From a phage: a stretch of 64,000 nucleotides of DNA. The translations under genes were made by a program, and so were the position numbers. A model generated the notes under the pieces. It was given only the letters and a program-made list of their open reading frames with translations, was not told where the DNA came from and made no database searches. Shown in pieces: positions 30,881-47,665 of this stretch. How positions within the stretch are numbered: position 1 is the first letter of the stretch; every line of letters begins with the position of its first letter. Where the stretch lies: the NCBI GenBank assembly GCA_020241125.1, contig GCA_020241125.1_4708.1; one strand, given 5' to 3'.

Positions 30881-30881
30881 A

Positions 30882-31391: not shown

Positions 31392-31407
31392 CGCAACGGT
31401 AACATAA

Positions 31408-31439
31408 CCCTCTCCCTTCCCTGCTGGGTTGGGAGAGGG
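31408..31439. terminator. Conserved palindromic hairpin (member 8) at convergent junction
   Basis: CATAA-CCCTCTCCC-ttCCCtgctGGGtt-GGGAGAGGG-cTTATG. Confidence 0.6.
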
Positions 31440-31456
31440 CTTATGCTGTTATGCTA

Positions 31457-31831
31457 TTAATGTTCGTTCCAGATGGCATCTTCCGGTGGAACAATAGGAT
31501 CTTTCTTCGGCATTGATGGCACTTCATGGCGATGTTTACGGAACTGCCTATCAATAACCTCACGAAGCCGGTACGCATCAACCCATGTTGATTTATTGAA
31601 CAGCTCCAATGTCACAGTTAATCGTGTTCTTGACATTGAATAGCTTTTCTTTGCAATCAAATTGGGATAATTCAGTTGAGCGAACCACGCACGTATTTGT
31701 GCTTCGGTAAAAGCGATGCTGTAATAACTAAGTTTACCGTCATTAAAATCGTGCGCGTGGGTGTAACGTCCAGCGTAACGCCAGACAAGATGCACATTCA
31801 GATCGATCCATGGTGGGGTGGTATCAGCCAT
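31457..31831 (-). CDS. Hypothetical protein
   Basis: 124-aa ORF. Confidence 0.45.
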   Translation of the reverse strand: MADTTPPWIDLNVHLVWRYAGRYTHAHDFNDGKLSYYSIAFTEAQIRAWFAQLNYPNLIAKKSYSMSRTRLTVTLELFNKSTWVDAYRLREVIDRQFRKHRHEVPSMPKKDPIVPPEDAIWNEH

Positions 31832-31840
31832 GTGTTACCC

Positions 31841-32410
31841 TCAACGATTCTTCATCACTTTACCCAGGCTTTCGATATTATCCCAAAAGCGATTTTTACT
31901 TGGCGCATCGCCGACGATAACCGACATCAAATCACGACGTTCGCGACTGATGATGCCTTGTGATTTCCAGATCACCATCGTCCAGCAAGCGGCCAGAACG
32001 AACAGATGGTTAATGCTCGGTTTGGTTTGCGCGATGAACGCAAGCCATGCCCAGATACCGGTGTATACTAGCGTCACTAAAAAGAGCGAGATTGTTGCAA
32101 CGACAACAACGAAGTTTTGGACAGCGGGTTGATTAGCGTTATCATGAATAGCGGTAAGATCAGGAAGATTACCTTCAACTGAACTCGTTTCATCGATTTC
32201 CAATTCTTCGATTTCTTTTCGTGTGTCAGGAGCTAATCCAGCATCATCGAGATGCTTTTTTAACCGCTGTATGCTTAATCGTTGACCGACAGGAATGTTG
32301 ATGTTGTCGTAACTATTAAGCGCATCAACCAGGGAGCGTCCATCAACGAGAACCAAGCTCGCGGTACCCATCGTTTGCGGTTTTATTTTGTAAAGGTCTT
32401 TTACTTTCAT
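31841..32410 (-). CDS. Hypothetical protein with internal hydrophobic segments
   Basis: 189-aa ORF; hydrophobic stretch VVVATISLFLVTLVYTGIWAWLAFI. Confidence 0.5.
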   Translation of the reverse strand: MKVKDLYKIKPQTMGTASLVLVDGRSLVDALNSYDNINIPVGQRLSIQRLKKHLDDAGLAPDTRKEIEELEIDETSSVEGNLPDLTAIHDNANQPAVQNFVVVVATISLFLVTLVYTGIWAWLAFIAQTKPSINHLFVLAACWTMVIWKSQGIISRERRDLMSVIVGDAPSKNRFWDNIESLGKVMKNR

Positions 32411-32431
32411 GTAGACACCACCTCCAACGTG

Positions 32432-35044
32432 TTAAGCGTCCGGCGTAAAATCAAAAGGAATGTCCGTACGAATGATATCATAACGTTTTCCGAGGAAATA
32501 AAACTCTTCGGGAACCTGACCGGGAATAATGCTATCACCGATGAACTGCGGATACGCCCAGATGTACTGAGTGAGTCCTTCGAACATATCCAGGTTATTT
32601 GCGTGGTTACCCATGATACGTTTCCAGAGTTCGCGTTTATACGGCGTTTTAACATCGAAACCATAAAGCGGTGCAAGATCTTCACCAGGAACAAATCCCA
32701 GGTAATAGTGAATCTGACTAACCGGGAAACCAAGCGTATCTCGCGGAATGGTGATCGCTTGCTCAGCTTTGGTGACATGCGTTTCAATAATCCAGTCGTA
32801 ACACTCTGAATAGAACCGATCGAATTTCTCTGGATTATACCACGCTTTGGGAAGATTCAGTTTCTCCGTGAACGCATTCGACATGATCGTCGGTAAGAAC
32901 GGAAGAACACCGGTTTTGATCTGCGTGTATTTCGATTTTACCCGGTTAACCAAATTCCAGCAACTGTATCCTAACTGTTCGTTACAAAACTCAACGTAGA
33001 GATCGTAATCACCGCCGGATAATGGGTTGTTGATATCACCAATGTCTGCAGCGTATTTGTTGGGATATCGGTTATTGAAAGCCAGTTTGGTTTGGTAATC
33101 GTAGATACACGGTTTGTTGTTCGCTGTATTGATCCACCACCAGGGTTCACCCACCTGTACACAAATGTCCTGGACATGAGGGTAAATAATATCGGCAAAC
33201 GCGGTTAACACATCCCCTAACCACGCCATCGCCTGTTGGTTACATGGAGACAGCAACCAGGACGGTGGTGTATATCCGGTTGCTGCGATGTTTCCTTCCC
33301 AATCCTGCTGCGCCCACTCGAACGGGCAGGCTGTACTCATCAATTCGTAACTTAAACTGATGGTGACAGAGAAATGGTGTTTTGCAGCATATGCGGCGAA
33401 AGCTTCATGCCACGCGATACAGGGTGGATTTAATACATCCGTGGTGTTCACCAGTAACTTACCCGCACTTGGCGTCCAGACAGTATCGTAGAAATGCGAC
33501 ATTCCAACATAATGCACTAATTCATCTTGATACCCCGCATAAACCAGGTTCTCAAATACACGCTCTGGCGTGATGTTGTAATGGTCATCGTAAGCGGTTA
33601 TCGCACGAAGTTCGTGTGGTGTACAGTGGTGACGATTAACCGTCATTTCCTGATACACCCCATCGATAGGAAGAATCTCGAGGGTTAAACCGAGGTCGAT
33701 TGGCGTTTCCAGATAGGTCGTTTCAGTCGCACCTTCCTTATAATGTCGAGAACTCATGCTGAACATCAACGATGCTACCGATTCGAGTTCGATAGGCTCG
33801 TCAGCATAGAACCCCGCCATTGCGTCATTGAAATCGATCGTTACGATTGCGCTTCTACCGTCTTCAGAGACATCGGTGGCGTATCGGGTTAATGAGATAT
33901 ACTGACGGCTATCGTCTTTGTGTACGACGGTTAAAACCGGCGGGTTTTCGGTATCTGCAAAGTTACGCTGATCGCCAGTAAACGTGATCTTCGCTTTAAA
34001 GATCAAACCGAATAACGACGTCATGGGATCATACGCAATACAACCGTGATCCAGCGTATCCGTTGTCCGCCATTCTATCCCGACCAACCCGTTAGCGGTA
34101 TGGCATCGCATATACGCATTAAGGACCATGTCTTCACTGACAACCGCGAAGTTCTCTGTTGACTGACCGTTGATAATCCAATACATCGGTTGCCAGAGGT
34201 TACGCGTACCTTTTGCGTAGCGGTAGGTTGGTGCGCCTTTAGGGTTGCCGTTATTGAGATGGAATACGGCAGTACCTTGATAATGGTCGTTCGTATTAAT
34301 CGGAACACTGTAAGCGTCACCGAGGTCCGTACGTTCCACCTTCGTGACCGTTGCGTTTTCAAATAACCCACGCAACGCTGGTAAACCGATATCTTCAGGC
34401 GCGTTTTCTCGACGAATCGCATCCGCGATGCGATGGGCTAAGGCGGGGTAAATAGCTTCACCCTGTTGTAGGTTTGCAAGACCTACAAAGCGATCAGGGT
34501 CGATACCAGCAATCAATAACTCAACATCACCCTTCGTTCTATCGTCGTTAAGATATTTCAGTCCGGTAAGGTCAAGATGCTGAATAAGCGACAACAGGTT
34601 GTATTTACGGTTTTCAACAGTTAGTACAAGATCGCCTGCCCAAACCAAACTTCCCTCATCCGCTGTTACTTTAACGGATTGTCGGCCTGTGGTAGACGTT
34701 GTTGTCGTTTTATTTAATTGTCCTTGTAGGAAGTCGGTTGCGAGGTCAAAGGCAATACCGTAACGGTCAGCGACCGCTTGCATGATTTCACGTAACTGGG
34801 TATCTTCTTCAATGATAATCTTGACAGGTATTCCCAGGAACGCTTTAGCGAGGTCTCGTTTAACCAACGAGACGAATACGGATTTGTAGTATCGGCTTCC
34901 ATCTTTCCCTTTAAAAAGAATGGAGGTTGTTTCGGGTGCCGATAGAACACGTGCAAATTCAACATCGTCGAAAGTAAGAGAAAGTCCGTTTTTCTCGTTG
35001 GTCAATCTTAGTATTTCATTTTGCGCGGTTTCATGTAACTTCAT
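32432..35044 (-). CDS. Receptor-binding protein (tail spike/fibre) with shared N-terminal anchor domain
   Basis: 870 aa; N-terminal ~110 aa (Y..VKRDLAKAFLGIP..I....YGIAFDLATDF) homologous to N-termini of the 40698, 41384 and 46786 products. Confidence 0.55.
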   Translation of the reverse strand: MKLHETAQNEILRLTNEKNGLSLTFDDVEFARVLSAPETTSILFKGKDGSRYYKSVFVSLVKRDLAKAFLGIPVKIIIEEDTQLREIMQAVADRYGIAFDLATDFLQGQLNKTTTTSTTGRQSVKVTADEGSLVWAGDLVLTVENRKYNLLSLIQHLDLTGLKYLNDDRTKGDVELLIAGIDPDRFVGLANLQQGEAIYPALAHRIADAIRRENAPEDIGLPALRGLFENATVTKVERTDLGDAYSVPINTNDHYQGTAVFHLNNGNPKGAPTYRYAKGTRNLWQPMYWIINGQSTENFAVVSEDMVLNAYMRCHTANGLVGIEWRTTDTLDHGCIAYDPMTSLFGLIFKAKITFTGDQRNFADTENPPVLTVVHKDDSRQYISLTRYATDVSEDGRSAIVTIDFNDAMAGFYADEPIELESVASLMFSMSSRHYKEGATETTYLETPIDLGLTLEILPIDGVYQEMTVNRHHCTPHELRAITAYDDHYNITPERVFENLVYAGYQDELVHYVGMSHFYDTVWTPSAGKLLVNTTDVLNPPCIAWHEAFAAYAAKHHFSVTISLSYELMSTACPFEWAQQDWEGNIAATGYTPPSWLLSPCNQQAMAWLGDVLTAFADIIYPHVQDICVQVGEPWWWINTANNKPCIYDYQTKLAFNNRYPNKYAADIGDINNPLSGGDYDLYVEFCNEQLGYSCWNLVNRVKSKYTQIKTGVLPFLPTIMSNAFTEKLNLPKAWYNPEKFDRFYSECYDWIIETHVTKAEQAITIPRDTLGFPVSQIHYYLGFVPGEDLAPLYGFDVKTPYKRELWKRIMGNHANNLDMFEGLTQYIWAYPQFIGDSIIPGQVPEEFYFLGKRYDIIRTDIPFDFTPDA

Positions 35045-35066
35045 TAAAAACCTCAGCCCTTTAGAA

Positions 35067-35708
35067 TTAAATGTACTGCTTACCGCCCACGAAGGAAGTT
35101 AACCAGTTCCCGCTGACGAGTTGTGATACCCAGCCTGGAACGGCTCTACCATTCTGGCTCATGATGTTACCACACCAACCAGGGAATCCGGGACGGATGT
35201 AATAGAAAGTTAAATTGTAGAGATGGCAATTCCATACCGCAACGTTATGTTTACCAGAAACCGCTTTAAAGACAAACGCGACAGGTAACGGAGACGATAA
35301 CAATTCGGTCACAGGGACGGCTGACCAGTTCGCATTCGCGTTCCATGGTTGCCAGGTATGGCTGCGCGAGTCGCAATATACGTTACCGTTGTTACCGCGC
35401 CCACCCGCATTCCACCACAGCGACGGACTCATGTTCTTAAGTGAGGTAAATTGCTGCGGTGGAATATTAGGAATAATAACAGGGTTGGTACCTTGCCCAT
35501 GTTTCTTTTCTTTTGCGTTCACATACCCGCTTATCGATTCGAGGTATTTGACACCAGGATAATTATTCTGGACTTGTGTCGCAATATCACGAACATCGAA
35601 CGTCCAGCAGATCATGGTGTTGTAGTAAGCATCGGTGTTGTCGTACCATGCGTTACCATCTTGTAAACGTGCGCCACTATTCGGTGTTTTATCTGTGTTT
35701 ATAGCCAT
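35067..35708 (-). CDS. Hypothetical Trp/Asn/Gly-rich protein, paralog 1 (conserved C-terminal module)
   Basis: 213 aa; C-terminal ~45 aa (RPGFPGWCGNIMSQNGRAVPGWVSQLVSGNWLTSFVGGKQYI) nearly identical to C-terminus of 35820..36572 product. Confidence 0.55.
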   Translation of the reverse strand: MAINTDKTPNSGARLQDGNAWYDNTDAYYNTMICWTFDVRDIATQVQNNYPGVKYLESISGYVNAKEKKHGQGTNPVIIPNIPPQQFTSLKNMSPSLWWNAGGRGNNGNVYCDSRSHTWQPWNANANWSAVPVTELLSSPLPVAFVFKAVSGKHNVAVWNCHLYNLTFYYIRPGFPGWCGNIMSQNGRAVPGWVSQLVSGNWLTSFVGGKQYI

Positions 35709-35819
35709 AGTGTTGTCCTATACTGCGATGATTGAGATATCGGATGCCGGATGTGTGTTGCCATCAGGTGGTACGTACAGAAACACCCACAGATAAAACA
35801 GTAGCTTCTCTAACTTCAA

Positions 35820-36572
35820 TTAAATTGAAGTTAGATATTGTTTACCTCCAACAAACGACGTTAACCAATTACCTGAAACAAGTTGCGATGCCCAGCCAGG
35901 CACTGCCCTACCGTTCTGGCTCATCACGTTACCTGCCCATCCCGGAAAACCAGGTCGGAAAATATATACTTGAATATGTGTTAAAGCGTTATCATTACCA
36001 CCGCCAACAGCAACGTTACGACTCCCAGATGACGGGAAATATTCTTTTAAGAACAGAGGATCGGTTGCTAATAAAGATGCGGGCCAAGGGTTCGCGGATG
36101 CATCAACATCGAATTCGGTCCATCGCCATTTACGTCCCGTGTCGAACCATGTCGATGTACCACCACCCCTCACGGCAAGATTGCGCGCATCACGGACATT
36201 ATAAATTGATTCGATGTTACGCCATCCACCTTTTGCAGCGTTTGCTGCATAGCAAACCGCATTACCACCATTCTTCTTCTCGTAAACGGTTCGTTTGATA
36301 TGAACACGGTCGATGAACGCTTCACCGTATTTGTTGACGAGCGTTTGTGCGATATCACGAAGATCGTGCATGTGAAAAGCGATGTCTTCGTTATGGAACC
36401 ATGTTGTCTGGTTCCAGACGGTACCGTTTGGTTCGGCACACATCGATCGGATATTGTTGCGTTGATTAATCGCGATAAAACCCATTGTATACCTCGTTCC
36501 TATTCTCAAAAAGGAAATTTCATACGATGACGCCATAGCAGCTCCTCCTTCCCTTACGGGTTGGAGGAGCAT
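35820..36572 (-). CDS. Hypothetical Trp/Asn/Gly-rich protein, paralog 2 (conserved C-terminal module)
   Basis: 250 aa; shares C-terminal module and DVRDIAxxVxN-Y motif with 35067..35708 product. Confidence 0.55.
   Translation of the reverse strand: MLLQPVREGGAAMASSYEISFLRIGTRYTMGFIAINQRNNIRSMCAEPNGTVWNQTTWFHNEDIAFHMHDLRDIAQTLVNKYGEAFIDRVHIKRTVYEKKNGGNAVCYAANAAKGGWRNIESIYNVRDARNLAVRGGGTSTWFDTGRKWRWTEFDVDASANPWPASLLATDPLFLKEYFPSSGSRNVAVGGGNDNALTHIQVYIFRPGFPGWAGNVMSQNGRAVPGWASQLVSGNWLTSFVGGKQYLTSI
36541..36570 (-). terminator. Conserved palindromic hairpin (member 9)
   Basis: CATAGCA-GCTCCTCC-ttCCCttacGGGtt-GGAGGAGC-ATAC. Confidence 0.55.
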
Positions 36573-36578
36573 ACTTAA

Positions 36579-37085
36579 TTACTCGCTGATAACCTCAACG
36601 GAATTGGGATCAGCGATCATCGCACGGTCAGTAGAACAATTGAAGAAGACCATGCCGACACCATCGCCGTTCGAGTTCAGGGTTGAACTTACGTAAGACA
36701 GGGTTGGTTTATTCATGCGGTAGAAGCGTTCGCTGGTTGCGGTATTGAACCCCAGGTCAACGTAGTCTTTCACCGTGGTGTACAACTGTGTGGACTCGAA
36801 AACGGTTACCGGAGAGTCGACGGTAAATTGACTACCTTCGTCTACAACCAGAACTTTATCGTTCCAGATTTCAGTGGTTGAGAACTTCGGTTTCCAATGT
36901 TCGAATTCCTGGGTTGCACCCCAGCAAGAATACACAGCGAGATTGCTGTTCTTCTCAACAGGTTTCAACCCCACCAGTTGTGTCAGGTCTTTATCCAGGT
37001 TCGGTAAGCCTTCCAGCGTAGCACACCCACCCAGAGAAAGTACCATCAACATACCAAGAACGATCGCACAAAGTTTCTTCATCAT
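36579..37085 (-). CDS. Putative lipoprotein
   Basis: 168 aa; N-terminus MMKKLCAIVLGMLMVLSLGGC is a classic signal peptide with lipobox (LGGC). Confidence 0.6.
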   Translation of the reverse strand: MMKKLCAIVLGMLMVLSLGGCATLEGLPNLDKDLTQLVGLKPVEKNSNLAVYSCWGATQEFEHWKPKFSTTEIWNDKVLVVDEGSQFTVDSPVTVFESTQLYTTVKDYVDLGFNTATSERFYRMNKPTLSYVSSTLNSNGDGVGMVFFNCSTDRAMIADPNSVEVISE

Positions 37086-37133
37086 TAGATTTCCTTATGT
37101 GTTAACGGAAGTGACTTCCATAAGGATTGATGA

Positions 37134-40100
37134 TTACTTTTTGAGCGCTTTAAGTTCTTCTTCCATCGCTTCCACTTTTGCCGTAAGCTTCTGTACTTGT
37201 TTGATTAATGGAACCACCAAACGTTCGTACATAACACCTTCGGCGACGAGTCCGTTAGAAGAAACGATAGCGGGGTCATCTTCTTCGGTTGCATCACGCC
37301 AATGCACGTATTGTGGTGCGATCTCACCAACCTCTTCGGCAATCAACCCATACCAACCCCAATCCTTGTTGTCGGCTTCGCAGGTAGAACGATACCAGAC
37401 AGGACGCATCTCCAATACTTTATCCGCTTGTTCATCCGTGATATTCTCGATATCTTTCTTATAGCGCCGCGACGACGTTGAACGAAACACATTGTTGATC
37501 CCAGCAGTAGGACTGATATACATATTAGCCCCGCTGGTTGTAGTGCTAATGTCCCATACCGCAAATCCGCCGTTACTCCCATTTCTCACGACCAACGTAT
37601 TGGCAATAATATCCAGGTTATTGTTGTAACCGGTTAACTGGTTTTCGGTGACAAAATCGGATAAGTTAACGGAGTAGTTCTTGCTGTTATAACAACGACG
37701 CCATCCTGGGCTGTTGGTGCTGCCATTATAGTTGTCGTAGCTATAAATGAACTCGGAGTTGGTTTTCGCACCACTGACGGAAGACGTGGTTGCGGTGGTA
37801 ACACGGATAGTGTAGTTCGTCATCCCGAAGCTAACGACCTCGATAACCGCACCAGCCAGAGGAATAATACCACATTTGGTTTCACTGTCTGGGATGTATG
37901 CGCTATCGGCAGCAGCGAAGGAGCAACGTGCGACCCAGGCACGGGTATTGAATGCACCTTGGTTCTGTAATAACGTAATAAACGATGAGGTCGTAATCGA
38001 GCTGTTATTATCACCTGTGATCAACCAGCCGGTTGGACATGCGGTAGCACCAACGTTTTTCGCTGTTAGCGTGATGTTCTTCGATCCGTCGAAGGCTACG
38101 CCGCTGATGGTACGTGCAGTCTGTAGCTTCGTCGCCGTTGCCGCGTTCCCTGATGTGTTCTGGTTGCCTGTTGTATTCACACCCGGGATACTATCCTTAG
38201 ATGTGTAGATCTGTGCCCATTCCGACCATTTCGCATCGGTTGAATCACGACGTGAACGTAGGTAAGCTGGAGCGTGTGCACCCGAGGTACCTGACCATCC
38301 AATGAGGATTTCACCTTCGCCGACCGATGAAGCGCCTTTAAGATGAACAACGTTACCGTAGGCTGTAGGGTATCCGTTATTGTACGCTTCATACATCTGG
38401 ATACCCGTATTGCTGCCCTGGGTCGCATTAGCTAAAGCGGTAACCCGTCCCTTGGAAGCGAGCACGTTAATGCTAAAGCTAATATCGGTTGTACCGTCAA
38501 AGGCGACCCCATTAATCCTCCGCGCTGTTTGGAGTTTCGTGGCAGTAGCCGCATTACCAGAGGTACTCTGATTGCCTGCTTTGTTCACACCTGGTAAATC
38601 AATGTTGGCGGTTCCATCAAAGGACACGCCCCCTATGGTTCTCGCCGTCTGAAGTTTTGTTGCTGAACCAGCGTTTCCGGAAGTGCTTTGATTACCCGTC
38701 GCGTTGACACCTGGTAGGTTAATGCTAGCAGAACCATCAAAAGAAACTCCACCGATCGTAATAGCTGTTCGCAACTTCGTGGCTGTCGCAGCGTTACCCG
38801 TCGTATTCTGATTACCAGCTGCATTGACGCCAGGTAATGCGATATCAGCTGTGCCATCGAACGCGACACCTCCGATTTTACGGGCGGTTTGTAGCTTGGT
38901 TGCTGTAGCAGCATTACCGCTGGTATTTTGCGTACCGGCTTTATTTACACCAGGAAGATCGATGTTAGCAGAACCATCGAAGCTGACGCCACCTATCGTT
39001 CTTGCAGTAGCAAGTTTAGCGGCTGTAGCAGCGACGTTACCGACTTTTAACCATTCTCCCCATGGACCATCCACACCGTTCCATGATGCCGTTAAACTGC
39101 GCACGTATATGTTTCCTGTACGTACTGTGTAACGTTGTGTTCCACCGAATTGACCGGCTGGGAGCACTTCGATGTAACCTACAGCATTTGCTTCAGGGAA
39201 ATTGTGGGCAGCATCGGCATTCGTTGATGTTTGTTTGGACCAAATACCCACAGACGCTTCAACCGGACCGTAGGTATCCAGATTTGCATCGGTGGGGAGC
39301 TGTCCTCGAAAACGTCGGAATAATGAAGCCGATAACCCCAACGTTGTTTGCATCCCTTCAATGCTTGACTGCGATAGAAGCGCCCGAGCTGTCGACGTGA
39401 TGGCCGCTAAAGCAACCTTATCCGTACCGGTAAAAAACGGGAATTTGTTTGCTGATGTTGCTAAACCTGAAAGGGCGGTCAGTAATGCGTTAAGGGGTTG
39501 TTTCCCGGCTAGCGCGTTAGTCACAGTCGTTGCAAAGTTTGGATCATTACCTAACGCTTGAGCTAACTCGTTAAGCGTATTTAGCGCTTCTGGAGACGAG
39601 TCGATCAGCGACGCGATAGCACGCATCACAAATTCCGTGTTGGCGATCTGTTGACTGCTATCGTTCTCTGCAGCCGTAGGTGCTGCTGGGATACCGGTGA
39701 ACACAGGGTTATTAAGATCCGCCTTAAGGGCGATGAGACGTCTAAGTGCTTCAACATCGACTTTCAGGTTTTCCCATCCGACGAGATAACCATCACCGGT
39801 TGTGTGATAACGGTTGTACCAAAAATCGCCATTAACGCCAAAATAAAATATTCCCTTCTCTTCGTATTGTGGGCCAGAACTGTTCCGTGATGAGCTAATG
39901 TATTTTATTTCGATAAGGCCGTTGAATACCACTCCTGGGATAATTTTGTCGTTTCCAGACGATTGCGATACCTGGTAAGCCCCCGGTGTTGTGGCTCTAA
40001 CCCAAGTCAAGAATTCTGATGTTCCAGCGTTACCGCTAAAACGCTTGACGTCGGTAAGTATCGCACCAAAACCGAACATACCGGGTAAAGCAACTCGCCC

Positions 40101-40691
40101 ATCGGTACGGTCACGAATATCTGTTGCAACAACAGGCAACTGCTTACGAACATCATTAACTGCTTTAGGTGTCGCTGATTTTGTCTCATCGTCGCTATCG
40201 ATATCACTGCTCAGGATGGTCAGTCCTCGAGTATCTGTGGTTGCATCAGGAAGAAACGCGTTATCTAACACCTTAAGCTGTATCGCATCCGTGTTATTAA
40301 CAACAACATACACTTGACAGTTAAGAACGCTGGTTGCGCCTTCGGTAGGCACAGGCTTGTATCTTTCTGGTGCACTGCATACGGCGACCAGAACACCTTG
40401 ATTGTCATACAGACCGATCTCACGTACCCAGAACCCACCTTGACTGGCAGGAATAATACCCTCAACAATAATCCTGGTTGTGTCGTCAACATCAATACGG
40501 ATGTTGGAAACTTCCCCACGATAAACTTCGTGTACAAGTGCTGTTTGGCTAGCATCGGGGGTTGGTGTAGAACCGTTGCCATCACCAACGGCAAAATGCG
40601 TAATTCTTAGTTTCTCACCGTCAGGAAGTAATGCTGCGGTGATACGTTCAGCGCCTTTATCGGTAATGACCGTTTTATAAGTTGTACTCAT
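37134..40691 (-). CDS. Long tail fibre protein with C-terminal intramolecular chaperone (peptidase S74-like) domain
   Basis: 1185 aa; N-terminal region resembles phage tail-fibre N-termini (P2 gpH-like; LIDSSPEALNTLNELAQALGNDPNFATTVTNALAGKQP); about 6 tandem ~38-aa repeats (GGVSFDGSANIDLPGVN...ATATKLQTAR); C-terminus SSRRYKKDIENI...WYGLIAEEVGEIAPQYV...LVVPLIKQVQKL matches S74 chaperone domain pattern. Confidence 0.75.
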   Translation of the reverse strand: MSTTYKTVITDKGAERITAALLPDGEKLRITHFAVGDGNGSTPTPDASQTALVHEVYRGEVSNIRIDVDDTTRIIVEGIIPASQGGFWVREIGLYDNQGVLVAVCSAPERYKPVPTEGATSVLNCQVYVVVNNTDAIQLKVLDNAFLPDATTDTRGLTILSSDIDSDDETKSATPKAVNDVRKQLPVVATDIRDRTDGRVALPGMFGFGAILTDVKRFSGNAGTSEFLTWVRATTPGAYQVSQSSGNDKIIPGVVFNGLIEIKYISSSRNSSGPQYEEKGIFYFGVNGDFWYNRYHTTGDGYLVGWENLKVDVEALRRLIALKADLNNPVFTGIPAAPTAAENDSSQQIANTEFVMRAIASLIDSSPEALNTLNELAQALGNDPNFATTVTNALAGKQPLNALLTALSGLATSANKFPFFTGTDKVALAAITSTARALLSQSSIEGMQTTLGLSASLFRRFRGQLPTDANLDTYGPVEASVGIWSKQTSTNADAAHNFPEANAVGYIEVLPAGQFGGTQRYTVRTGNIYVRSLTASWNGVDGPWGEWLKVGNVAATAAKLATARTIGGVSFDGSANIDLPGVNKAGTQNTSGNAATATKLQTARKIGGVAFDGTADIALPGVNAAGNQNTTGNAATATKLRTAITIGGVSFDGSASINLPGVNATGNQSTSGNAGSATKLQTARTIGGVSFDGTANIDLPGVNKAGNQSTSGNAATATKLQTARRINGVAFDGTTDISFSINVLASKGRVTALANATQGSNTGIQMYEAYNNGYPTAYGNVVHLKGASSVGEGEILIGWSGTSGAHAPAYLRSRRDSTDAKWSEWAQIYTSKDSIPGVNTTGNQNTSGNAATATKLQTARTISGVAFDGSKNITLTAKNVGATACPTGWLITGDNNSSITTSSFITLLQNQGAFNTRAWVARCSFAAADSAYIPDSETKCGIIPLAGAVIEVVSFGMTNYTIRVTTATTSSVSGAKTNSEFIYSYDNYNGSTNSPGWRRCYNSKNYSVNLSDFVTENQLTGYNNNLDIIANTLVVRNGSNGGFAVWDISTTTSGANMYISPTAGINNVFRSTSSRRYKKDIENITDEQADKVLEMRPVWYRSTCEADNKDWGWYGLIAEEVGEIAPQYVHWRDATEEDDPAIVSSNGLVAEGVMYERLVVPLIKQVQKLTAKVEAMEEELKALKK
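38080..39060 (-). repeat. Intragenic tandem coding repeats (~114 bp units) within the tail fibre gene
   Basis: Repeated peptide unit visible in translation; DNA units diverged but periodic. Confidence 0.6.
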
Positions 40692-40697
40692 GGCGTT

Positions 40698-41225
40698 TTA
40701 TCCCGGGTAAATAGTGATGACATCACCGATGACAGTTGCCGCACCGGCGCAAAGATACGCTGGTGATGTATCACGCTGGTTTGTCACGATAAGATCCAAT
40801 TGCCCACGCCAAACCATGGAGGTATTCGCGATGGGAATCGAGATCTTCTTGGAAGTATCGTCACGAAAATTAATGGCGGTAGCAAGGGTAGCTGAATCAA
40901 AATCAACGTCGGGTTCAAAGTTGAAACCGTATTGATCCGAAATAGCTTGAATAACCGCTCTTATGGTTGTTGTTTCAACCGACTCCAAAACGATTTTTAT
41001 CGGTATTCCTAGAAATGCTTTCGCTATATCACGCCGTGTGTAAGTGATAAAACTTTCACCACACCACCTTGTTCCTTCATTTGCTGTGACGATCACTTTT
41101 GCCCTGTTAACACCAGAACTCCCATCCAGGGTTAAAGTGAGATCGGAGTTGCTGAATACACTACTGTTACGTTGGTTTATCAACGTAATAAGTTCGTCTT
41201 TCCATGGTGGGTAAAGTGAACGCAT
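40698..41225 (-). CDS. Short protein carrying only the shared receptor-binding-protein N-terminal anchor domain
   Basis: Start set at ATG 41225 (MRSLYPPWKDE) preceded by GGAGGAGGG; ORF-track start at 41408 would run through the upstream hairpin; product shares RRDIAKAFLGIPIKI...YGFNFEPDVDF with other RBP N-termini. Confidence 0.5.
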   Translation of the reverse strand: MRSLYPPWKDELITLINQRNSSVFSNSDLTLTLDGSSGVNRAKVIVTANEGTRWCGESFITYTRRDIAKAFLGIPIKIVLESVETTTIRAVIQAISDQYGFNFEPDVDFDSATLATAINFRDDTSKKISIPIANTSMVWRGQLDLIVTNQRDTSPAYLCAGAATVIGDVITIYPG

Positions 41226-41338
41226 AAGCGCACCCTCCTCCAACAATCGAATTAATATGCAAAAACGCCTCGAAACAGGAGTGCGATTCGAGGCTAACGT
41301 AAACAGTCTTAACGACCGCATAAAATTCCGCGCATATT

Positions 41339-41371
41339 GCCCCTCTATCCCGACAAAGCGAGATAGAGGGG
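41339..41371 (-). terminator. Palindromic hairpin (member 10)
   Basis: CATATTG-CCCCTCTATC-ccgacaaagcga-GATAGAGGGG. Confidence 0.5.
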
Positions 41372-41383
41372 AGGATAATACGA

Positions 41384-43153
41384 TTATGCTGCTACATATC
41401 CAGGCCAACGTTCTCTTGGCCAGTTTGTTGCGCCCTGTCCAACGTTGTCCTTACCAGAAATTACATTACTTACGTCCCAACCACTAAGATCCTGGTTAAA
41501 TGCGGTGTTGTTACGCATCATGAGGTCGATATTACGTAATGATTGGGTATTCCAGCCGGAAATGTCTTGGTTGAATGCCGTGTTGTAAGCAAACATGTTA
41601 ACAACGTTTTGTAATTTTGAAGTGTTCCAGCCGCTAATATCGCCATTGAACTGCATGCTCGAGAACATACTGCTAGCATCGATAAGACTATCTGTTTTCC
41701 AGTTAACCAGCTTGTTTTCATCAAGTGCGTTGCAACTACTGAACATGTAACTCATGTTGTTAACTTTGGATACATCCCATTTATCTAACCCGTTACCAAC
41801 GAACTCGTAACAAGCTTGGAACATCCAGCTCATGTCGGTAACCTGGCTCACATTCCATTTGCTAAAGTCGAGGTTGAGTTTTGCGCATCCGGAGAAAGTT
41901 TTATACATACTGGTGATACGACTAACATCCCATTCTTGAATGTTAGGATCATTAAGTATAGATAAGAATTGGAACAATCCGTCTAACGACGTCCATTTCT
42001 CTGGAATACGGTTTGGTACTGTACGGAGCGATGAAAGGTTATTGGTTGACGGAGAGCGGAACATACCGTTATCCCAATTTACGATTTCCGTAATGTTGTA
42101 CCCACGGATCGTTTGGCGTCCATTACCATTATACACAGACCCTGTTGCAGTTATTGTATATTCGTTTGTATCAGCATACGTATGTTCAGCCTGTGTAGGC
42201 CACTCACCTATTACATCCCTATTCCCATCACCCCAATCGATGGAAATATTTGTCCAACCATCAAGATCTAGGGTAACGGTCCCGCCATTGGTCTTCAGGA
42301 TGTATTTACCTGCATTGTCGGTATAATAACAAACGATCATCGCACCGTATAGGTTACCAATTTGCCAATCATCCTTTTCTGTTACCGCTATTTGCGCTGT
42401 ACCACGTTGTAAGAAAAGCACCGTACGGTTGTCGTCAGTCTGTAACGCGGTTAATGCTTGAGCTTTGTCGTCGCCGGTAATTTCACCAGCTTCCACTAAA
42501 GCATTTAACATTCTTTCAAAGTATTCGATGGGTAATTGGTGTCCTACAGACATGTCAACTGATGGAAGAATGAGATCATCTAATGCTGCGGCAGTTGCAA
42601 GGACTAATGATCCCTTGGTGGGGTCTGTTTCTTGGAGGTAACGTAGTCCCGTAATCTGGTATGCTTGAATGATTGTAATCAGATCCAGCGTATCGTTAAT
42701 GACCTGTATCTGTAAATGCCCAGACCAAACATAGCTGCTTTCAGCAATTGGTAATTCGACCGCCTGAATACCTGACGTTTCAAAGCTGATCTTTTTATTA
42801 AGATCGGTTTCCAGGAAATCAACCGCGAGATCGAAATTTATACCGTACTTTTCAGCGATGGAATCTACGATGTTTCTGAAAGCAACATCGGTACTTACGA
42901 TAAAACGTAACGGGATTCCTGCAAATGCATTAGAGATATCTCGACGAACATATGTGAGTGACTGCTCGAAGAAATACGGGCTGTTATCTCCAGGCTTGAT
43001 GGTTATCTGGCACACCTCAGGGTGTTCAGCTGGGATGAACGATTCGAATTTAACATCGGATTCTTTCAACGAAAGCTTGTTCTTCCGGTTTACCAACGCC
43101 AGAAGATCGGCTTTCCATCCAGGATAAACTGTAGACATAAGCACTCCAATCAT
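41384..43153 (-). CDS. Receptor-binding protein with DUF285/BspA-like repeats and shared N-terminal anchor
   Basis: 589 aa (start possibly at internal Met MSTVYPGW); N-terminal anchor homologous to other RBPs; C-terminal repeated units FxxxxAFNQDISGWNTxxLxNxxxMF typical of DUF285/BspA-type repeats. Confidence 0.6.
   Translation of the reverse strand: MIGVLMSTVYPGWKADLLALVNRKNKLSLKESDVKFESFIPAEHPEVCQITIKPGDNSPYFFEQSLTYVRRDISNAFAGIPLRFIVSTDVAFRNIVDSIAEKYGINFDLAVDFLETDLNKKISFETSGIQAVELPIAESSYVWSGHLQIQVINDTLDLITIIQAYQITGLRYLQETDPTKGSLVLATAAALDDLILPSVDMSVGHQLPIEYFERMLNALVEAGEITGDDKAQALTALQTDDNRTVLFLQRGTAQIAVTEKDDWQIGNLYGAMIVCYYTDNAGKYILKTNGGTVTLDLDGWTNISIDWGDGNRDVIGEWPTQAEHTYADTNEYTITATGSVYNGNGRQTIRGYNITEIVNWDNGMFRSPSTNNLSSLRTVPNRIPEKWTSLDGLFQFLSILNDPNIQEWDVSRITSMYKTFSGCAKLNLDFSKWNVSQVTDMSWMFQACYEFVGNGLDKWDVSKVNNMSYMFSSCNALDENKLVNWKTDSLIDASSMFSSMQFNGDISGWNTSKLQNVVNMFAYNTAFNQDISGWNTQSLRNIDLMMRNNTAFNQDLSGWDVSNVISGKDNVGQGATNWPRERWPGYVAA
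41416..41956 (-). repeat. DUF285/BspA-like coding repeats (~69 bp period)
   Basis: Repeated SGWN(T/V)S...N...MF units in translation; periodic DNA similarity. Confidence 0.5.
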
Positions 43154-43175
43154 GGGGCGGTAACCGCCCCATCGG

Positions 43176-46100
43176 TTAAATTGTTGGTTTCACGTCGCGT
43201 AATAGGGCAATATAATAGCCTAATCCTCGGAGGATCTCCCCACTCCAGAAACCAAAATACATTCCGTCTCTGCCGAGATTAGTACTATCTGGCGCAGGAC
43301 TCCACCCACCATTCATTACATCGTCAACGGTGTAACGGTTGATGTAGTTCTCAACAATCTCGTTATAAACGTTAACAGCAACAGGATAGCCTTTATCGTT
43401 GGGATGTCCGTACAACATCGCTAACGACGCGCCCGCCAACCATAATCCTGCCATGTGACCAGTAAAGTCATTAGGGATAAAAGCTGGAGGTTTATCCATC
43501 GGAAAATCCGTAGGAGATTGATAAGCGTTTTCCTGTTGATACGTGAACAAGAAATCAATCCAATGACTGATGTAAGTGGTTAACTTCTCGGGGACAGCTA
43601 AACCATGATCGAGCAGTCCAGCATAAAGCCTCACCGCTGAGAAGAAAGCCCTCGGCTGATAACCAGACCATGCTGTCTGATCGCCGAAGTGGTACATCGT
43701 AAAATCGTTGACTTTCGATCCGCTTGGCGCATCCCAACGATCCCACACGTACGCACTTGCACCCGGCCCTAAAACACCGAATTTCTGATGATACCACTGT
43801 TGTGAGTCATACCAGAAATTCACAACATTCTGGATCATGAGGTCACGTCGTTCAGCCGTTACATCCATATCCAGGAAGACCCATGGATGCTGGTAGCCAG
43901 GATAAGGCTGACCACGCCAACTGTCGAACGTCGGTGCGTTAGGGATATAGTTGTTTGAGAACGGAATAATACCTGGAGTATAAGGCAATGGATCTAGACG
44001 CTGGTTAACAATCGTGCAGTCACCAACACGTAACGTACCCTCCGCCTCAAAGGTTGCTTTTAACGTAAACAACATGGTATATCCGTCATCCGTGGCGTAA
44101 GTTGATGGTGGATTGTTGATAGCGTAGAGCTTAAATACCCCTTCAGCGATATCGCCGTCATCAGGCAAGAACAGAATTTCAGTTGAACCATCGCCCCACA
44201 CAGGTGCGGAAGGTTTAGGGTCAGTGCCAGCATGGTTAGGTTGATACCCTGAGAGCGTCCACCCATTCGCCGAAAGTGTCAATGTATTTCTTGCTGTGGT
44301 GGCTGGTAACATCTGCCACCATCGCCAACCATTTGCATCTTCTACACGAACGTTGTAGTCAATCGACGCGAAATAACTGACCTGCCTTACGATCTGTTTT
44401 GCGGTTGGATTGAATTCAAATTGTCCGCCTGCCGCAGTAAGCTGCGCTTTTAAGAACAACCCATCCCAGGAATCTTCCACTGCTTCGCTGAATTCTGTTG
44501 TGATGGCGACATCATCTTTCCAGCCGACTTTATCGGCCGATATCAACACAGAACCTGTAACAGCATCACCGGTTGACGCTGAAGCTTCATCAACCGCATC
44601 AGCAGGAATCAACGAGCCTATTTTGAAATCCCATTCTTTCGGTTCAGCGCTGGAAGGTAATACCAGCTTGTACGTTTTGGCTTTCGCTTCGGTTTTGTCC
44701 AAAGAAAGCGATAATGAGATCTCAACTGGAATTGCAACGCCTGCTGTATCTTTACCTCCGCAGGTTACACGAAGAATTGAATCACGATTGACGCGGAACG
44801 GAATGGCCTGCTGTTCAAGGTAAATTTGTGCTGAAGATGCTTGAATCACGATCCAACCATCGGTATCACGTGTGATTGTGAACGGCGCTTTCGACGGGTA
44901 TGTATACGTGTAAGCGATACCGTCGGTGTCGTAACGATCGGTTCCTTTTACTTGACGGAAGAACTTATCGTTAGCGTCAATACGGGTATATTCTTCAATC
45001 GTAAACAAAGACGCCTTGTACGCTTTCTGATAACGCTCCTGCTGCGTTAAACGGTATAAGGTGTAGGCTGCTTCACAAAACCACTGTTCAGCGTCTGACG
45101 CGTTTCCCATGTAGTCTCTGGTGACCGGCACCTGGATCGGTCGGTTATGCTGACACTCGTTCGTTTTGATAAGGTATCCGCCATATTCAACAGGAACACG
45201 CGGTGCCCATGCAACCAAGTAAGAACCGCTGACGGATTTATTTTTGAGTACGATAGTACCTACTTCATCGTCAGTACACGCTTCAAGATCGTCCCCGTCA
45301 GCACTTACGTAACGTTTTGTGCGTAACGCAACTTTCTCGATAGGGAACACCGTACCCTTTGTATCCCAGTCAATCGTCCCATCATCATTGGTTTTGAACA
45401 CATCGGCGTTCAAATTCTGCCAGCCGAGTTTACCTTCATAGACCTGAACAACAAGATCCATGTATTCCCCGAACGTTGGTGCCCCATGTGTTATTTTCCC
45501 GATACCGTTGGTGAATGTAACCGCTGTGTCATGGAAACCCCCGTGTGTTGGGTAATCGTCTTTTGCAAGAGGATAATGAGCCAACACCGGTTGCTTACCA
45601 TTAACGATCCAGTTAGCGATCCAGCGTGTCGGTGTATCCGGTGGTTCAAGGCCTGCGTAGAACGCTTTTATATACGCATCGAACGATGCCTCTGCTAATG
45701 TGAGATAATGCGCTTTAAGCTTGGTGTTGTCCGTTGTATGACTGAATATACCCGCACCCAGAATTAACAACGACTGTCCTTCTGTTGTTGCGTCACCATC
45801 CGGTTGTGCTTCTTGTCGTGTTGCTGCAATGAAATGACGGTTGTTTACCATGACCCCGCTTTCATTTAACACGTAATGATCGGTTTCTGGGTCGGTAAAC
45901 GTTCCTGTGTTTCGGGTTAAGAATCTTGCATGGCCATAACCAACGAAATTAACCGGCGACGCTGTAATCATCCATTTACCGATAAGTTGAGCAACATCAT
46001 TATAACGCTCGGATGCGGTGATTTGTTTCACGTACCAGTCTTTATGGTTAAATGTCCAAAGCAGGAAGTAATAAGTTGTATCGATTTCCATCACTGGGAA

Positions 46101-46772
46101 CGTCGGCGTTAACGGCTCCAGCGTTAAGTAGTTGCTCCAGTCAATCTGTCCGCCAACCACCGATGGGGTAATCTCTAATAACTGACACCATTCATAACGG
46201 TCCGGTACACTACTGGACGTTGTTGGTAAAGGTAACTTGTATACGCCAGTACGATTCAGATCGAACGCTTTTCTAGCCGATCCTAAATCAACATAAATAC
46301 TCGATGATGCGCTTGCACTATATGCCCCCAAAGCACCTAGCGTTGACCGATACATTGAGATGAACAACGTATCTTTCCAGTAAGGGTTATCCTTGGTTGG
46401 TTCTAAAGCGATTTGTGCGGAGATGCTGTTCCATGTCCCTAACTGGTATGTCGCATTTAAAGATTCTTCTGTGAAATAACTTTCTGCAATCGTCAGATGG
46501 AACTGCTCGTTCAATAACGCGAGTGCGGCGCGGCCAGTAACATCCTCGTTACCGGTTTCTTTTTTCACGATCGCGCCGAACGGAAACAGTGTCGCGAATG
46601 ACCGTTTTGGTTTATTAACCGTAACCGTCCCTGTGTAATTTCCAACACCGTCAAGTTTTTGACTATCGCCAACAGCAGTGACTGCGATACCATCAGCCGG
46701 GATATTTGTTTTATTTAGTACATTGAGTTGGTCAACCAGATCCTGCTTATCGTCAGGTAAGAATGTCGCCAT
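43176..46772 (-). CDS. Hypothetical very large protein (1198 aa), probable tail/baseplate-associated protein
   Basis: Long ORF embedded in the tail-fibre cluster; no recognisable motif; lacks the shared N-terminal anchor. Confidence 0.5.
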   Translation of the reverse strand: MATFLPDDKQDLVDQLNVLNKTNIPADGIAVTAVGDSQKLDGVGNYTGTVTVNKPKRSFATLFPFGAIVKKETGNEDVTGRAALALLNEQFHLTIAESYFTEESLNATYQLGTWNSISAQIALEPTKDNPYWKDTLFISMYRSTLGALGAYSASASSSIYVDLGSARKAFDLNRTGVYKLPLPTTSSSVPDRYEWCQLLEITPSVVGGQIDWSNYLTLEPLTPTFPVMEIDTTYYFLLWTFNHKDWYVKQITASERYNDVAQLIGKWMITASPVNFVGYGHARFLTRNTGTFTDPETDHYVLNESGVMVNNRHFIAATRQEAQPDGDATTEGQSLLILGAGIFSHTTDNTKLKAHYLTLAEASFDAYIKAFYAGLEPPDTPTRWIANWIVNGKQPVLAHYPLAKDDYPTHGGFHDTAVTFTNGIGKITHGAPTFGEYMDLVVQVYEGKLGWQNLNADVFKTNDDGTIDWDTKGTVFPIEKVALRTKRYVSADGDDLEACTDDEVGTIVLKNKSVSGSYLVAWAPRVPVEYGGYLIKTNECQHNRPIQVPVTRDYMGNASDAEQWFCEAAYTLYRLTQQERYQKAYKASLFTIEEYTRIDANDKFFRQVKGTDRYDTDGIAYTYTYPSKAPFTITRDTDGWIVIQASSAQIYLEQQAIPFRVNRDSILRVTCGGKDTAGVAIPVEISLSLSLDKTEAKAKTYKLVLPSSAEPKEWDFKIGSLIPADAVDEASASTGDAVTGSVLISADKVGWKDDVAITTEFSEAVEDSWDGLFLKAQLTAAGGQFEFNPTAKQIVRQVSYFASIDYNVRVEDANGWRWWQMLPATTARNTLTLSANGWTLSGYQPNHAGTDPKPSAPVWGDGSTEILFLPDDGDIAEGVFKLYAINNPPSTYATDDGYTMLFTLKATFEAEGTLRVGDCTIVNQRLDPLPYTPGIIPFSNNYIPNAPTFDSWRGQPYPGYQHPWVFLDMDVTAERRDLMIQNVVNFWYDSQQWYHQKFGVLGPGASAYVWDRWDAPSGSKVNDFTMYHFGDQTAWSGYQPRAFFSAVRLYAGLLDHGLAVPEKLTTYISHWIDFLFTYQQENAYQSPTDFPMDKPPAFIPNDFTGHMAGLWLAGASLAMLYGHPNDKGYPVAVNVYNEIVENYINRYTVDDVMNGGWSPAPDSTNLGRDGMYFGFWSGEILRGLGYYIALLRDVKPTI

Positions 46773-46785
46773 TATTTACTCCACC

Positions 46786-47616: not shown

Positions 47617-47665
47617 GCTGACCTCATAGATGATCGTTGATAGGAAAGAAACCTAATTCATACCA

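Follow-up and report, generated by a model that had tools for sequence, protein, structure and literature searches.

Several phage tail-fibre systems serve as points of reference for the gene described here. Phage P2 has a separate assembly protein, gpG, and phages Mu and P1 have the separate assembly proteins U/U', together with an invertible segment by which the fibre tips are switched. The S74 domain, in turn, is released in the endosialidase of phage K1F, in T5 pb1 and in the appendages of phages GA-1 and phi29; in the K1F endosialidase literature the serine nucleophile is spaced such that the lysine of the Ser/Lys dyad lies five residues on, and the residue following the nucleophile is an aspartate. 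The structure 3GW6 is that of the K1F endosialidase chaperone, and the L-shaped fibre pb1 of T5 is another S74 example. Goslarviruses infect E. coli, Salmonella and Shigella; they are jumbo phages that form a nucleus, and hundreds of them have recently been found in clinical isolate assemblies. Bacterial assemblies are known to contain them (PMC12768965), and gp90 of Goslar (Goslar_00090, QBO63883.1, annotated as 'tail fiber repeat protein') has been detected by virion mass spectrometry (Goslar cryo-EM preprint).

The DNA analysed here (the window, a stretch of 64,000 nucleotides) is from a bacterial isolate assembly, and on sequence comparison it is a Goslarvirus (Chimalliviridae), co-assembled with E. 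coli O157. Its tail-fibre gene, as seen from the ORF list and the translation, starts with an ATG, lies 6 nt beyond the stop codon of the preceding gene and codes for 1185 residues plus stop. In a megablast search the gene matches Goslar only, with 86% identity across 60% of its length, and it has the same genomic position and the same neighbours as the gp90 gene, the flanks being collinear with Goslar and 95-97% identical. Residues 1-869 are orthologous to gp90 (81-87% DNA identity), and the last 316 codons are unrelated to it (blastp E 0.26). Judged from the position and the N-terminal 869 codons, the gene is that of the long tail fibre and the ortholog of Goslar_00090. The features of the gene are as follows.

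37134..40691, minus strand: the whole tail-fibre gene (ORF translation, megablast to Goslar, synteny with Goslar).
40269..40691, minus strand: P2 gpH-type N-terminal domain (PF12571), aa 1-141 (Pfam, tblastn to P2 H).
40146..40241, minus strand: single 'Phage_fiber_2' motif (PF03406), aa 151-182 (Pfam, one stretch only).
39768..40055, minus strand: first globular shaft domain, mixed alpha/beta, aa ~213-308 (AlphaFold2; boundaries approximate).
39306..39755, minus strand: helix-rich shaft segment, aa ~313-462 (helices predicted by AlphaFold2 at low confidence).
39036..39305, minus strand: beta-rich segment before the repeats, aa ~463-552 (low-confidence strands; kept in Goslar).
38478..39035, minus strand: four complete repeat units and positions 1-26 of unit 5, aa 553-738 (autocorrelation, HMM, 120-nt DNA spacing).
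38190..38477, minus strand: 96-aa globular insert within unit 5, 'knob 3', aa 739-834 (HMM match broken at position 26/27).
38064..38189, minus strand: positions 27-40 of unit 5 and positions 1-28 of unit 6, aa 835-876 (HMM; docking point of the tip cassette).
37671..38063, minus strand: globular knob like that of Mu S'/P1 S, aa 877-1007 (PDB 8JU3, P1 S, AlphaFold2 with pLDDT 75-86, Foldseek).
37473..37670, minus strand: short 66-aa stalk/tip, aa 1008-1073, ending at the predicted cleavage residue Ser1073 (predicted mature C-terminus).
37458..37475, minus strand: predicted Ser/Lys autoproteolysis motif S-S-R-R-Y-K, Ser1073-Lys1078 (aligns with PF13884 position 1).
37137..37472, minus strand: 112-aa intramolecular chaperone domain with predicted release from the fibre, aa 1074-1185 (PF13884, AlphaFold2, Foldseek).

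The three modules named in the preliminary description, a P2 gpH-like N-terminus, a repeat block and an S74 C-terminus, are thus all present, as seen from Pfam, autocorrelation, HMM and P2 H homology. Taken together, the data are probably explained by a trimeric, modular Goslarvirus long tail fibre with exchangeable parts, having a predicted self-cleaving chaperone at the tip and a repeat array that acts as a spacer and as a docking site.

The N-terminal region matches PF12571 (aa 1-141, E 8.7e-42) and, in a tblastn comparison, P2 gpH (aa 1-178, 39.6% identity, E 1e-29); by analogy with P2, this region presumably links the fibre to the baseplate. It is followed by the PF03406 match (aa 151-182, E 1.7e-7). 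The full-length AlphaFold2 model, calculated with 35 close relatives as input, has a mean pLDDT of 32.7 and is left out of the fold searches; its sole confident part is the first globular shaft domain (pLDDT 58-80). Because this model is uninformative, the shaft domain boundaries are approximate, except for knob 3, which is defined by sequence, and knob 4, which is modelled. Within the helix-rich segment, the PDB sequence search gives a match of residues 355-413 to chain 9d93 ('tail collar fibers gp4', E 7.7e-9). This segment is an indel hotspot with respect to Goslar, which has 32 additional residues near aa 448. The beta-rich segment is possibly a second knob. Pairwise blastp and phmmer comparisons of the four putative knobs give no significant similarity, and therefore paralogy is not claimed.

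The periodicity of the array is seen in a BLOSUM62 autocorrelation of aa 541-900, which peaks at lags of 40, 80 and 120 (1.33, 0.87 and 0.64), against a maximum over all lags of -0.07 in 200 shuffles. An HMM derived from four units locates full units at aa 553-592, 593-632, 633-672 and 673-712 (85-89 bits each) and partial units at aa 713-738 (positions 1-26), 835-848 (positions 27-40) and 849-876 (positions 1-28). The array consists, therefore, of four full units, a fifth unit that is split by the 96-aa insert and a truncated sixth unit. The preliminary description of at least six tandem repeats of about 38 residues is right as to the six units and their periodicity, but the period is 40 residues (120 nt) and the sixth unit is split off by the insert. 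Knob 3 is absent in 13 of 121 relatives and is hence optional in the population.

The repeat copies share 62-85% of their residues and 56-69% of their nucleotides, in agreement with the earlier remark that they are diverged at the DNA level and conserved at the protein level; the identity at third codon positions is 15-45%, and exact DNA matches from one copy to another reach at most 13 nt. Tandem Repeats Finder reports no repeat in the fibre gene because the copies are too diverged, whereas an ungapped repeat finder detects families spaced by 120 nt with 65-72% identity. None of the 40-residue units matches PF03406 at E <= 0.01, NCBIfam models give no match to the units, and a PDB sequence search with the array finds no significant structure match, such that the 40-residue unit is a repeat type different from PF03406. 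The designed 'Cake' propellers, which appear among the non-significant PDB matches, are dismissed as chance matches that arise from the shared 40-residue period.

The repeat number has been compared in a set of 121 related fibres. It varies from 2 to 11 units in exact steps of 40 residues, and the array span equals 0 or 16 modulo 40 in all 121 proteins. One relative (L003), having 99.2-99.9% DNA identity, is without exactly 408 bp, in register, so that one unit and knob 3 are cleanly missing; the deletion junction lies in GGTGTGAA, an 8-nt microhomology common to both units. With less than 1% DNA difference and yet one unit and a knob fewer, this relative indicates that at least one length event is recent. 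It could be argued that the array is a fixed shaft only, with copy-number differences that are old lineage differences and without ongoing variation or recombination. The synonymous sites are saturated between copies and exact matches stay at or below 13 nt, so that one would expect the copies to undergo classical homologous recombination only rarely; moreover, an architecture of 8 units dominates (53/121). However, the perfectly quantised array lengths, the in-register loss in L003 and the occurrence of near-identical cassettes on backbones that differ in similarity and in unit number make the fixed shaft quite improbable. The sequence comparisons support the earlier proposal of length variation and recombination in the repeat block, where the indels can be read in either direction, as deletion or as duplication. 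In this proposed mechanism the array would be a spacer, whose length shifts in steps of 40 residues via in-register deletion or duplication at short microhomologies, and it would also provide a common docking sequence for the exchange of different tip cassettes.

Such an exchange is suggested by the distal part of the fibre. The nucleotide similarity to Goslar in blastn stops at 38085, inside the last repeat unit, and is back to 95% identity 11 nt past the fibre stop codon. The distal cassette consists of the truncated repeat unit, the knob, the 66-residue stalk and the 112-residue S74 chaperone. The knob matches the Mu S' fibre in the PDB sequence search (8JU3, aa 877-1007, E 1.5e-20, 45% identity) and in Foldseek (E 4e-9, rmsd 2.6 Å over 119 columns), and it is 52% identical to P1 S in the phage collection, with the similarity extending to about aa 1051. 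Residues ~1016-1185 share 55-67% identity with small proteins of T1-like siphophages that carry the chaperone. The stalk is kept together with the chaperone domain in these T1-like proteins and in an E. albertii fibre of 512 residues (P0127), and it has low confidence in the monomer AlphaFold2 model, as is to be expected when folding requires the trimer. The gene is chimeric, and more so than was initially described, as it joins a Goslar gp90-like part (aa 1-869), a Mu S'/P1 S knob and a T1-like chaperone part.

Among the relatives, three types of tip cassette join at one common repeat register; counted from where the last unit begins, their tails are 337/341, 244 and 179 residues long, and downstream of the knob-only type there is no tfa gene. 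Backbones with between ~59% and 100% identity in their N-terminal 420 residues carry C-terminal cassettes that are 93-100% identical. In the window, neither a Tfa nor a glycine-rich tip is found to be encoded (tblastn with the Goslar Tfa across the whole window), and the genes downstream of the fibre have no Pfam match. These comparisons indicate that the tip swap with respect to Goslar was accompanied by a switch of folding strategy and by the loss of tfa, 'three more repeats, glycine-rich tip and Tfa' being replaced by 'knob, stalk and built-in chaperone'. An invertible segment of the Mu G/P1 C type has been considered and rejected, as the region 35000-41500 has two short imperfect inverted repeats, neither of which flanks the tip, and no second tip or invertase is found among the genes adjoining the fibre.

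A chimeric gene in a bacterial isolate assembly could in principle be an assembly artefact, in which a Goslar-like fibre is joined to a prophage fibre of the O157 host via a shared repeat motif. E. coli prophage fibres do share the knob and the repeat motif, which could mislead an assembler. This is nevertheless scarcely credible, since the identical 1185-residue protein (P0005, 'phage tail protein [E. coli O157]', on a 238-kb contig) is found on at least three independent contigs, and since 61 of the best 120 relatives, from many samples and metagenomes and on contigs of 230-250 kb, carry the same S74-type cassette. The resumption of the Goslar identity directly after the stop codon also speaks against it. 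The closest relative outside the Goslarviruses in a search of 5.8 billion proteins is only 60% identical (P0127, which matches the whole cassette and has the same repeat motif at the junction), and the top match in the phage collection is 52% identical; neither search gives, therefore, a candidate donor.

It is possible, though less likely than not, that the array is a dedicated 'adapter', constant in protein and saturated at synonymous sites such that frequent homologous recombination within a genome is suppressed, into which S74, Tfa or chaperone-free tips are plugged, with length and tip being tuned jointly to the host surface. In-register, microhomology-mediated length changes would still be allowed. 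The target of such tuning would be, for example, the depth of the O-antigen or capsule, and the repeated association of the cassette with E. coli O157 assemblies would then reflect it.

The C-terminal domain matches PF13884 (Peptidase_S74) over aa 1073-1129, which covers profile positions 1-57 of 58, with 34.1 bits (cut-off 22). All 61 S74-type relatives retain the Ser-x4-Lys motif at its start, and so do distant homologues, among them P0127, P0152 and those of the T1-like phages. The AlphaFold2 model of the domain has a pLDDT of 74-95 and ends in a long helix (residues 321-350 of the modelled fragment), which on the basis of this model is likely a coiled coil. In Foldseek the domain matches the ICA domain of the eukaryotic homologue MyRF (7DC3, E 2e-3, probability 1.0) and, weakly, the endosialidase chaperone 3GW6 (E 0.075). 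Neither the PDB sequence search nor a profile search with the cassette alignment gives a significant sequence match to solved chaperone chains. In the latter search, the matches to T4 gp34 and Mu S stem from other sequences of the alignment and are not counted for this fibre. From the Ser-x4-Lys residues, the PF13884 match and the modelled fold we infer that the fibre is autoproteolytic. With the chaperone as nucleus, the distal fibre would trimerise and fold, and the chaperone would then cut itself off after Ser1073 via the Ser1073/Lys1078 pair, as in its family, leaving a mature fibre of 1073 residues. Alternatively, the S74 domain could be structural or degenerate and be retained, uncleaved, as the distal end of the mature fibre. 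In favour of this, the P1' residue is a serine instead of an aspartate, and the structural likeness to the endosialidase chaperone is weak. Retention is nonetheless unlikely, considering the full-length PF13884 match above the curated cut-off, the conservation of the motif from the S74-type relatives to the E. albertii and T1-like homologues, the similarity of the fold to auto-processing ICA/IMC domains and the release of this domain in characterised family members.

There may be other, possibly more important determinants of host range than this fibre, because additional host-recognition fibres have been proposed. In the Goslar cryo-EM preprint the tail fibres are unresolved and a 'DUF7941 fiber cloud' is suggested to function in host recognition, and here four DUF7941 genes flank the fibre gene according to Pfam, one of them with DUF285 repeats. 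The fibre could thus be accessory, with primary recognition by the neighbouring DUF7941 proteins, which have LRR or carbohydrate-binding domains. Several observations point the other way and make this rather unlikely: the fibre locus is the sharpest drop in identity to Goslar, the cassette exchange is of a kind typical for receptor-binding proteins, the tip modules come from annotated tail fibres (of Mu, P1 and E. coli prophages), and one tip source is a small T1-like protein annotated as lateral tail fibre chaperone. Accessory and recognition roles are, moreover, not mutually exclusive. In the passages searched, a receptor-prediction preprint that covers Goslar makes no usable statement on the Goslar receptor.

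The fibre locus shows where phages that are otherwise 95-97% identical differ in their genomes, and by which exact rules: lengths change in quanta of 40 residues, and three tip types share a single fixed docking register. These rules provide a practical handle for the prediction or engineering of host range in the Goslarviruses, for example by a cassette swap at the last unit. In addition, the locus offers a clean case from nature in which a built-in chaperone and a separate chaperone gene have been swapped for one another. As a concept, it adds nothing beyond the known mosaicism of tail fibres, and the fibre is a clear but ordinary example of the shuffling of phage fibre parts.

When compared with the known systems, the N-terminal ~180 residues of the fibre are homologous to P2 gpH, including PF12571 and the PF03406 motif, and everything beyond ~180 is different. 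In Mu S' (gp52, 8JU3) the homologous knob is internal (chain residues 198-322 of 488), and, unlike in Mu and P1, the region 35000-41500 has no inverted repeats indicative of an invertible segment and the window has no assembly gene. With the S74 chaperones (PF13884) the fibre shares the C-terminal position, the Ser-x4-Lys at the start of the domain and the long terminal helix; it differs in having a serine after the nucleophile, not an aspartate, and in its mature part, where a knob with a very short stalk takes the place of an enzyme or long beta-helix. P0127 ('tail fiber domain-containing protein', from an E. albertii/E. coli prophage) has a repeat unit, knob, stalk and S74 domain, covering 98% of the cassette, but its N-terminal part is short and unrelated, and it lacks both PF12571 and a long repeat array. 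In Goslar, as in P2, Mu and lambda, a Caudo_TAP assembly protein is encoded separately downstream of the fibre (Goslar_00089); this gene is missing in the window. Moreover, gp90 has 7+4 units compared with 5+1 in the fibre described here, a 32-residue insertion near aa 448 that this fibre lacks, and a glycine-rich tip (PF21722) where the fibre has the knob, stalk and S74 domain. In both proteins, the PF12571 N-terminus, the 40-residue units and the 96-residue insert inside a unit are shared.

The fibre gene starts 6 nt past the stop codon of the upstream gene, and about 50 nt downstream of it are a ribosome-binding site and the next gene. The gene and its modules (residue numbers of the fibre) are:

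37134..40691, minus strand: fibre gene, a single ORF with an ATG start and 1185 codons
aa 1-141: tail-collar fibre N-terminus, PF12571 (Pfam E 8.7e-42, above the curated cut-off)
aa 151-182: single PF03406 motif (Pfam, above the curated cut-off)
from aa 553, 593, 633 and 673: four full repeat units (HMM)
aa 713-738: first part of unit 5, model positions 1-26 (HMM)
aa 835-848: second part of unit 5, model positions 27-40 (HMM)
aa 849-876: last unit, model positions 1-28 (HMM)
aa 1073-1129: PF13884, Peptidase_S74, 'chaperone of endosialidase' (Pfam, 57 of 58 model positions, above the curated cut-off)

The only nucleotide match of this gene is with Escherichia phage vB_EcoM_Goslar (here Goslar), a 237-kb jumbo phage of the Chimalliviridae, and it covers only the first 60% of the gene. 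The fibre belongs to a jumbo phage, a Goslarvirus. An identical protein, encoded on a contig of 238,283 bp, is already public under the generic name 'phage tail protein [Escherichia coli O157]'. Bacterial isolate assemblies are known to contain Goslarvirus genomes, of which 237 are reported, in a survey where tail fibres go unmentioned (PMC12768965). The Goslar ortholog of the fibre, gp90, is found by mass spectrometry in purified virions, and tail fibres are not resolved in the cryo-EM study of Goslar (bioRxiv 10.64898/2026.04.21.720040).

When positions 30000-50000 of the window are compared with the Goslar locus by blastn, both flanks of the fibre gene have 95-97% identity, compared with just 81-87% for fibre codons 1-869. 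The similarity stops at position 38085, within the last repeat unit, and restarts with 95% identity at position 37122, 11 nt past the stop codon. In Goslar, the counterpart of this stretch encodes three more units, a glycine-rich tip (PF21722, precomputed annotation) and, as a separate Caudo_TAP gene, the tail-fibre-assembly protein Tfa (Goslar_00089). The last 316 residues of the window fibre have no relation to this tip (blastp E 0.26), and nothing in the 64-kb window encodes the Tfa or the glycine-rich tip of Goslar. This is a tip swap, with a self-chaperoned tip in place of a Tfa-dependent one. An invertible-segment mechanism for the tip and an assembly chimera were both considered and rejected.

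The N-terminus had been called P2 gpH-like in the preliminary description, and this label is literally correct, because P2 gene H is returned when aa 1-185 are searched against phage genomes by tblastn (39.6% identity over aa 1-178). The knob (aa 877-1007) has 52% identity to P1 S and matches the S' fibre of phage Mu by sequence (E 1.5e-20; PDB entry 8JU3, the chain of which is Mu gp52, PMC11821841). In the AlphaFold2 model of aa 835-1185, calculated from an alignment of 56 diverse sequences, the knob has a pLDDT of 75-86 and 8JU3 is also its top Foldseek match (E 4e-9, rmsd 2.6 Å). The model confidence is low for the stalk (aa 1008-1073, 66 residues), as expected for a segment that folds only in the trimer. 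The modelled C-terminal domain (pLDDT 74-95), ending in a 30-residue helix, matches the intramolecular-chaperone auto-processing domain of MyRF (7DC3; Foldseek E 2e-3, probability 1.0); its match to the intramolecular chaperone of endosialidase is weaker (3GW6; E 0.075). The S74 chaperone proposed for the C-terminus is indeed present, as PF13884. It opens with S1073-S-R-R-Y-K1078, which we take to be the Ser-x4-Lys arrangement of the catalytic pair of the family, as in the endosialidase literature. This motif is kept in all 61 S74-type relatives among the best 120 matches, and in distant homologues.

T1-like siphophages have proteins of ~231 aa, with the annotation 'lateral tail fiber chaperone' or 'chaperone of endosialidase', to which residues ~1016-1185 are 55-67% identical. 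In these phages (Drexlerviridae, for example PeterMerian, tunus and tonn), it is such free-standing proteins (P0152-like), and not the end of a long fibre, that are nearest to the stalk and S74 module. Their SS-RYK motif is near residue 105, and several of the records are split or mis-annotated ('hypothetical protein (x2)').

The fibre is periodic when analysed formally: the BLOSUM62 autocorrelation of aa 541-900 has peaks of 1.33, 0.87 and 0.64 at lags 40, 80 and 120, whereas the best value at any lag in 200 shuffles is -0.07. The period is therefore 40 residues and not ~38, as had been estimated. With an HMM built from four units, the expected six units are found, of which not all are in tandem: model positions 1-26 and then 27-40 flank aa 739-834, so that these 96 residues interrupt unit 5 as an insertion and do not separate two units, and the sixth unit comes after it. 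The copies are diverged in DNA (56-69% identity) and conserved in protein (62-85%), as had been noted, with third-position identity of 15-45% and exact DNA matches of at most 13 nt. This divergence explains why Tandem Repeats Finder reports no repeats in the gene, whereas an ungapped search finds families spaced by 120 nt with 65-72% identity. The unit is not the PF03406 repeat of Pfam, is matched by no NCBIfam model and has no significant match by sequence among solved structures.

In a search of 5.8 billion proteins, the best 120 of thousands of matches are fibres of the Goslarvirus type (929-1571 aa), and many of these are encoded on contigs of 230-250 kb that come from E. coli, Salmonella, Shigella and metagenomes. 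By HMM count, the number of units ranges from 2 to 11 among 121 proteins, with a mode of 8 (53 proteins), and in all 121 the distance from the first to the last unit is 0 or 16 modulo 40. The array is therefore perfectly quantised in length, whether the 96-aa insert is present or, as in 13 of the 121, missing. Nearly all relatives are covered by three cassettes, which all begin in the last unit, at one and the same register.

Distal cassettes (lengths counted from the start of the last unit)
S74 type (knob, stalk and chaperone): 337 or 341 aa
Glycine-rich type: 244 aa
Terminal-knob type: 179 aa

The terminal knob is a relative of the window knob (38% identity), and no tfa gene is found downstream of it in the Goslarvirus contig L002. 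Among most carriers, the S74 cassette has 93-100% identity, whereas identity to the window protein over the N-terminal 420 residues spans about 59-100%, the low values being partly due to a ~91-aa deletion in some backbones. Cassette and backbone therefore have separate histories.

Four S74-type entries (P0005, P0031, P0060 and P0121) are from assemblies named E. coli O157; the first three have the 93-100%-identical cassette allele, and P0121 is a fragment from the cluster of P0005. An assembly named Salmonella Panama (P0018) has an 85%-identical allele, and the source names of glycine-rich-tip forms are E. coli, Salmonella and Shigella flexneri. These named sources, in a sample that is not dereplicated, hint that cassette and host are linked.

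The pre-repeat region also varies in blocks (P0030, P0032, P0057, P0064, P0067, P0084), the first unit beginning at aa 462, 543-553, 585, 657, 744-748, 808 or 899 among the relatives. Some longer fibres have an extra PF21446 domain (P0032, P0057, P0064, P0084; not P0030 and P0067). Whole shaft domains are therefore gained and lost, and not the 40-aa units alone.

A recent change of length is seen in L003, another Goslarvirus contig, whose fibre gene has 99.2% identity to the window gene over the first 2156 nt and 99.9% over the last 1053 nt. Exactly 408 bp are missing, corresponding to the 96-aa insert and one 40-aa unit, and the junction lies in GGTGTGAA, 8 nt common to unit 4 and the post-insert half-unit. 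This single in-register deletion or insertion is direct evidence that array length changes in register through microhomology and not through long identical tracts, in agreement with the shortness of the exact matches that the copies share. The repeat block, previously suspected as a site of length variation or recombination, is one, as seen from the quantised variation of its unit number, the docking of three tips at one register and this 408-bp change.

A 250-aa ORF at 35820-36572 (minus strand), two genes downstream of the fibre gene and without a Pfam or PHROG match, is a second variable gene. It falls in a 721-bp stretch (36481-35761) missing from Goslar, and relatives have a 218- or 221-aa ORF at this site; the 218-aa ORF of L002 is just 39% identical overall, with the last ~55 residues near-identical (…PGFPGWAGNVMSQNG-AVPGWASQLVSGNWLTSFVGGK-YL). 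A 589-aa protein (41384-43153, minus strand) has an N-terminal DUF7941 and a C-terminal DUF285 (BspA-like leucine-rich repeats), and the ~1.7-kb stretch 43141-41397 is absent from Goslar and present in L002, L003 and L004. DUF7941 proteins have been proposed as a host-recognition 'fiber cloud' (bioRxiv 10.64898/2026.04.21.720040), of which the 589-aa protein would then be a variable member. Three further DUF7941 proteins are encoded around the fibre gene (32432-35044, 40698-41408 and 46786-47616, all minus strand); the 870-aa one also has 'non-contractile tail sheath' N-terminal and TIM-barrel domains (PF23844, PF23845). Since the orthologs in Goslar and L002-L004 have 175 aa, the 236-aa protein listed with a TTG start at 41408 probably begins further downstream.

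Judging from known families, the N-terminus would anchor the trimer to the baseplate, and the C-terminal domain would nucleate trimer folding of the distal fibre and could remove itself after Ser1073, so that the mature chain would have 1073 aa; receptor specificity may be set by the tip cassette. The family knowledge behind these proposed roles is that of P2 H and T5 pb1 and, reportedly, of the work of Schwarzer and Schulz on endosialidase chaperones. As an observation the preliminary description is confirmed, and its interpretation is supported, with corrections on two points, the period and the place of the sixth unit. The Goslarvirus identity, the tip swap and the 40-aa quantisation with its single register are additions to the preliminary description, unsurprising in kind; in the searched literature, no description for Goslarviruses of a Tfa-to-self-chaperone tip swap, of 40-aa quantisation or of a single docking register is found.

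Compared with the window fibre, which has 5+1 units, Goslar gp90 has 7+4 units and an insertion of 32 residues near aa 448. A 512-aa fibre protein of E. albertii has the complete cassette (unit, knob, stalk and chaperone) with 60% identity, attached via the same repeat motif, and the fusion of knob and chaperone is therefore older than its arrival in Goslarviruses. The window fibre is a typical mosaic tail fibre, in which every module is of a known kind.
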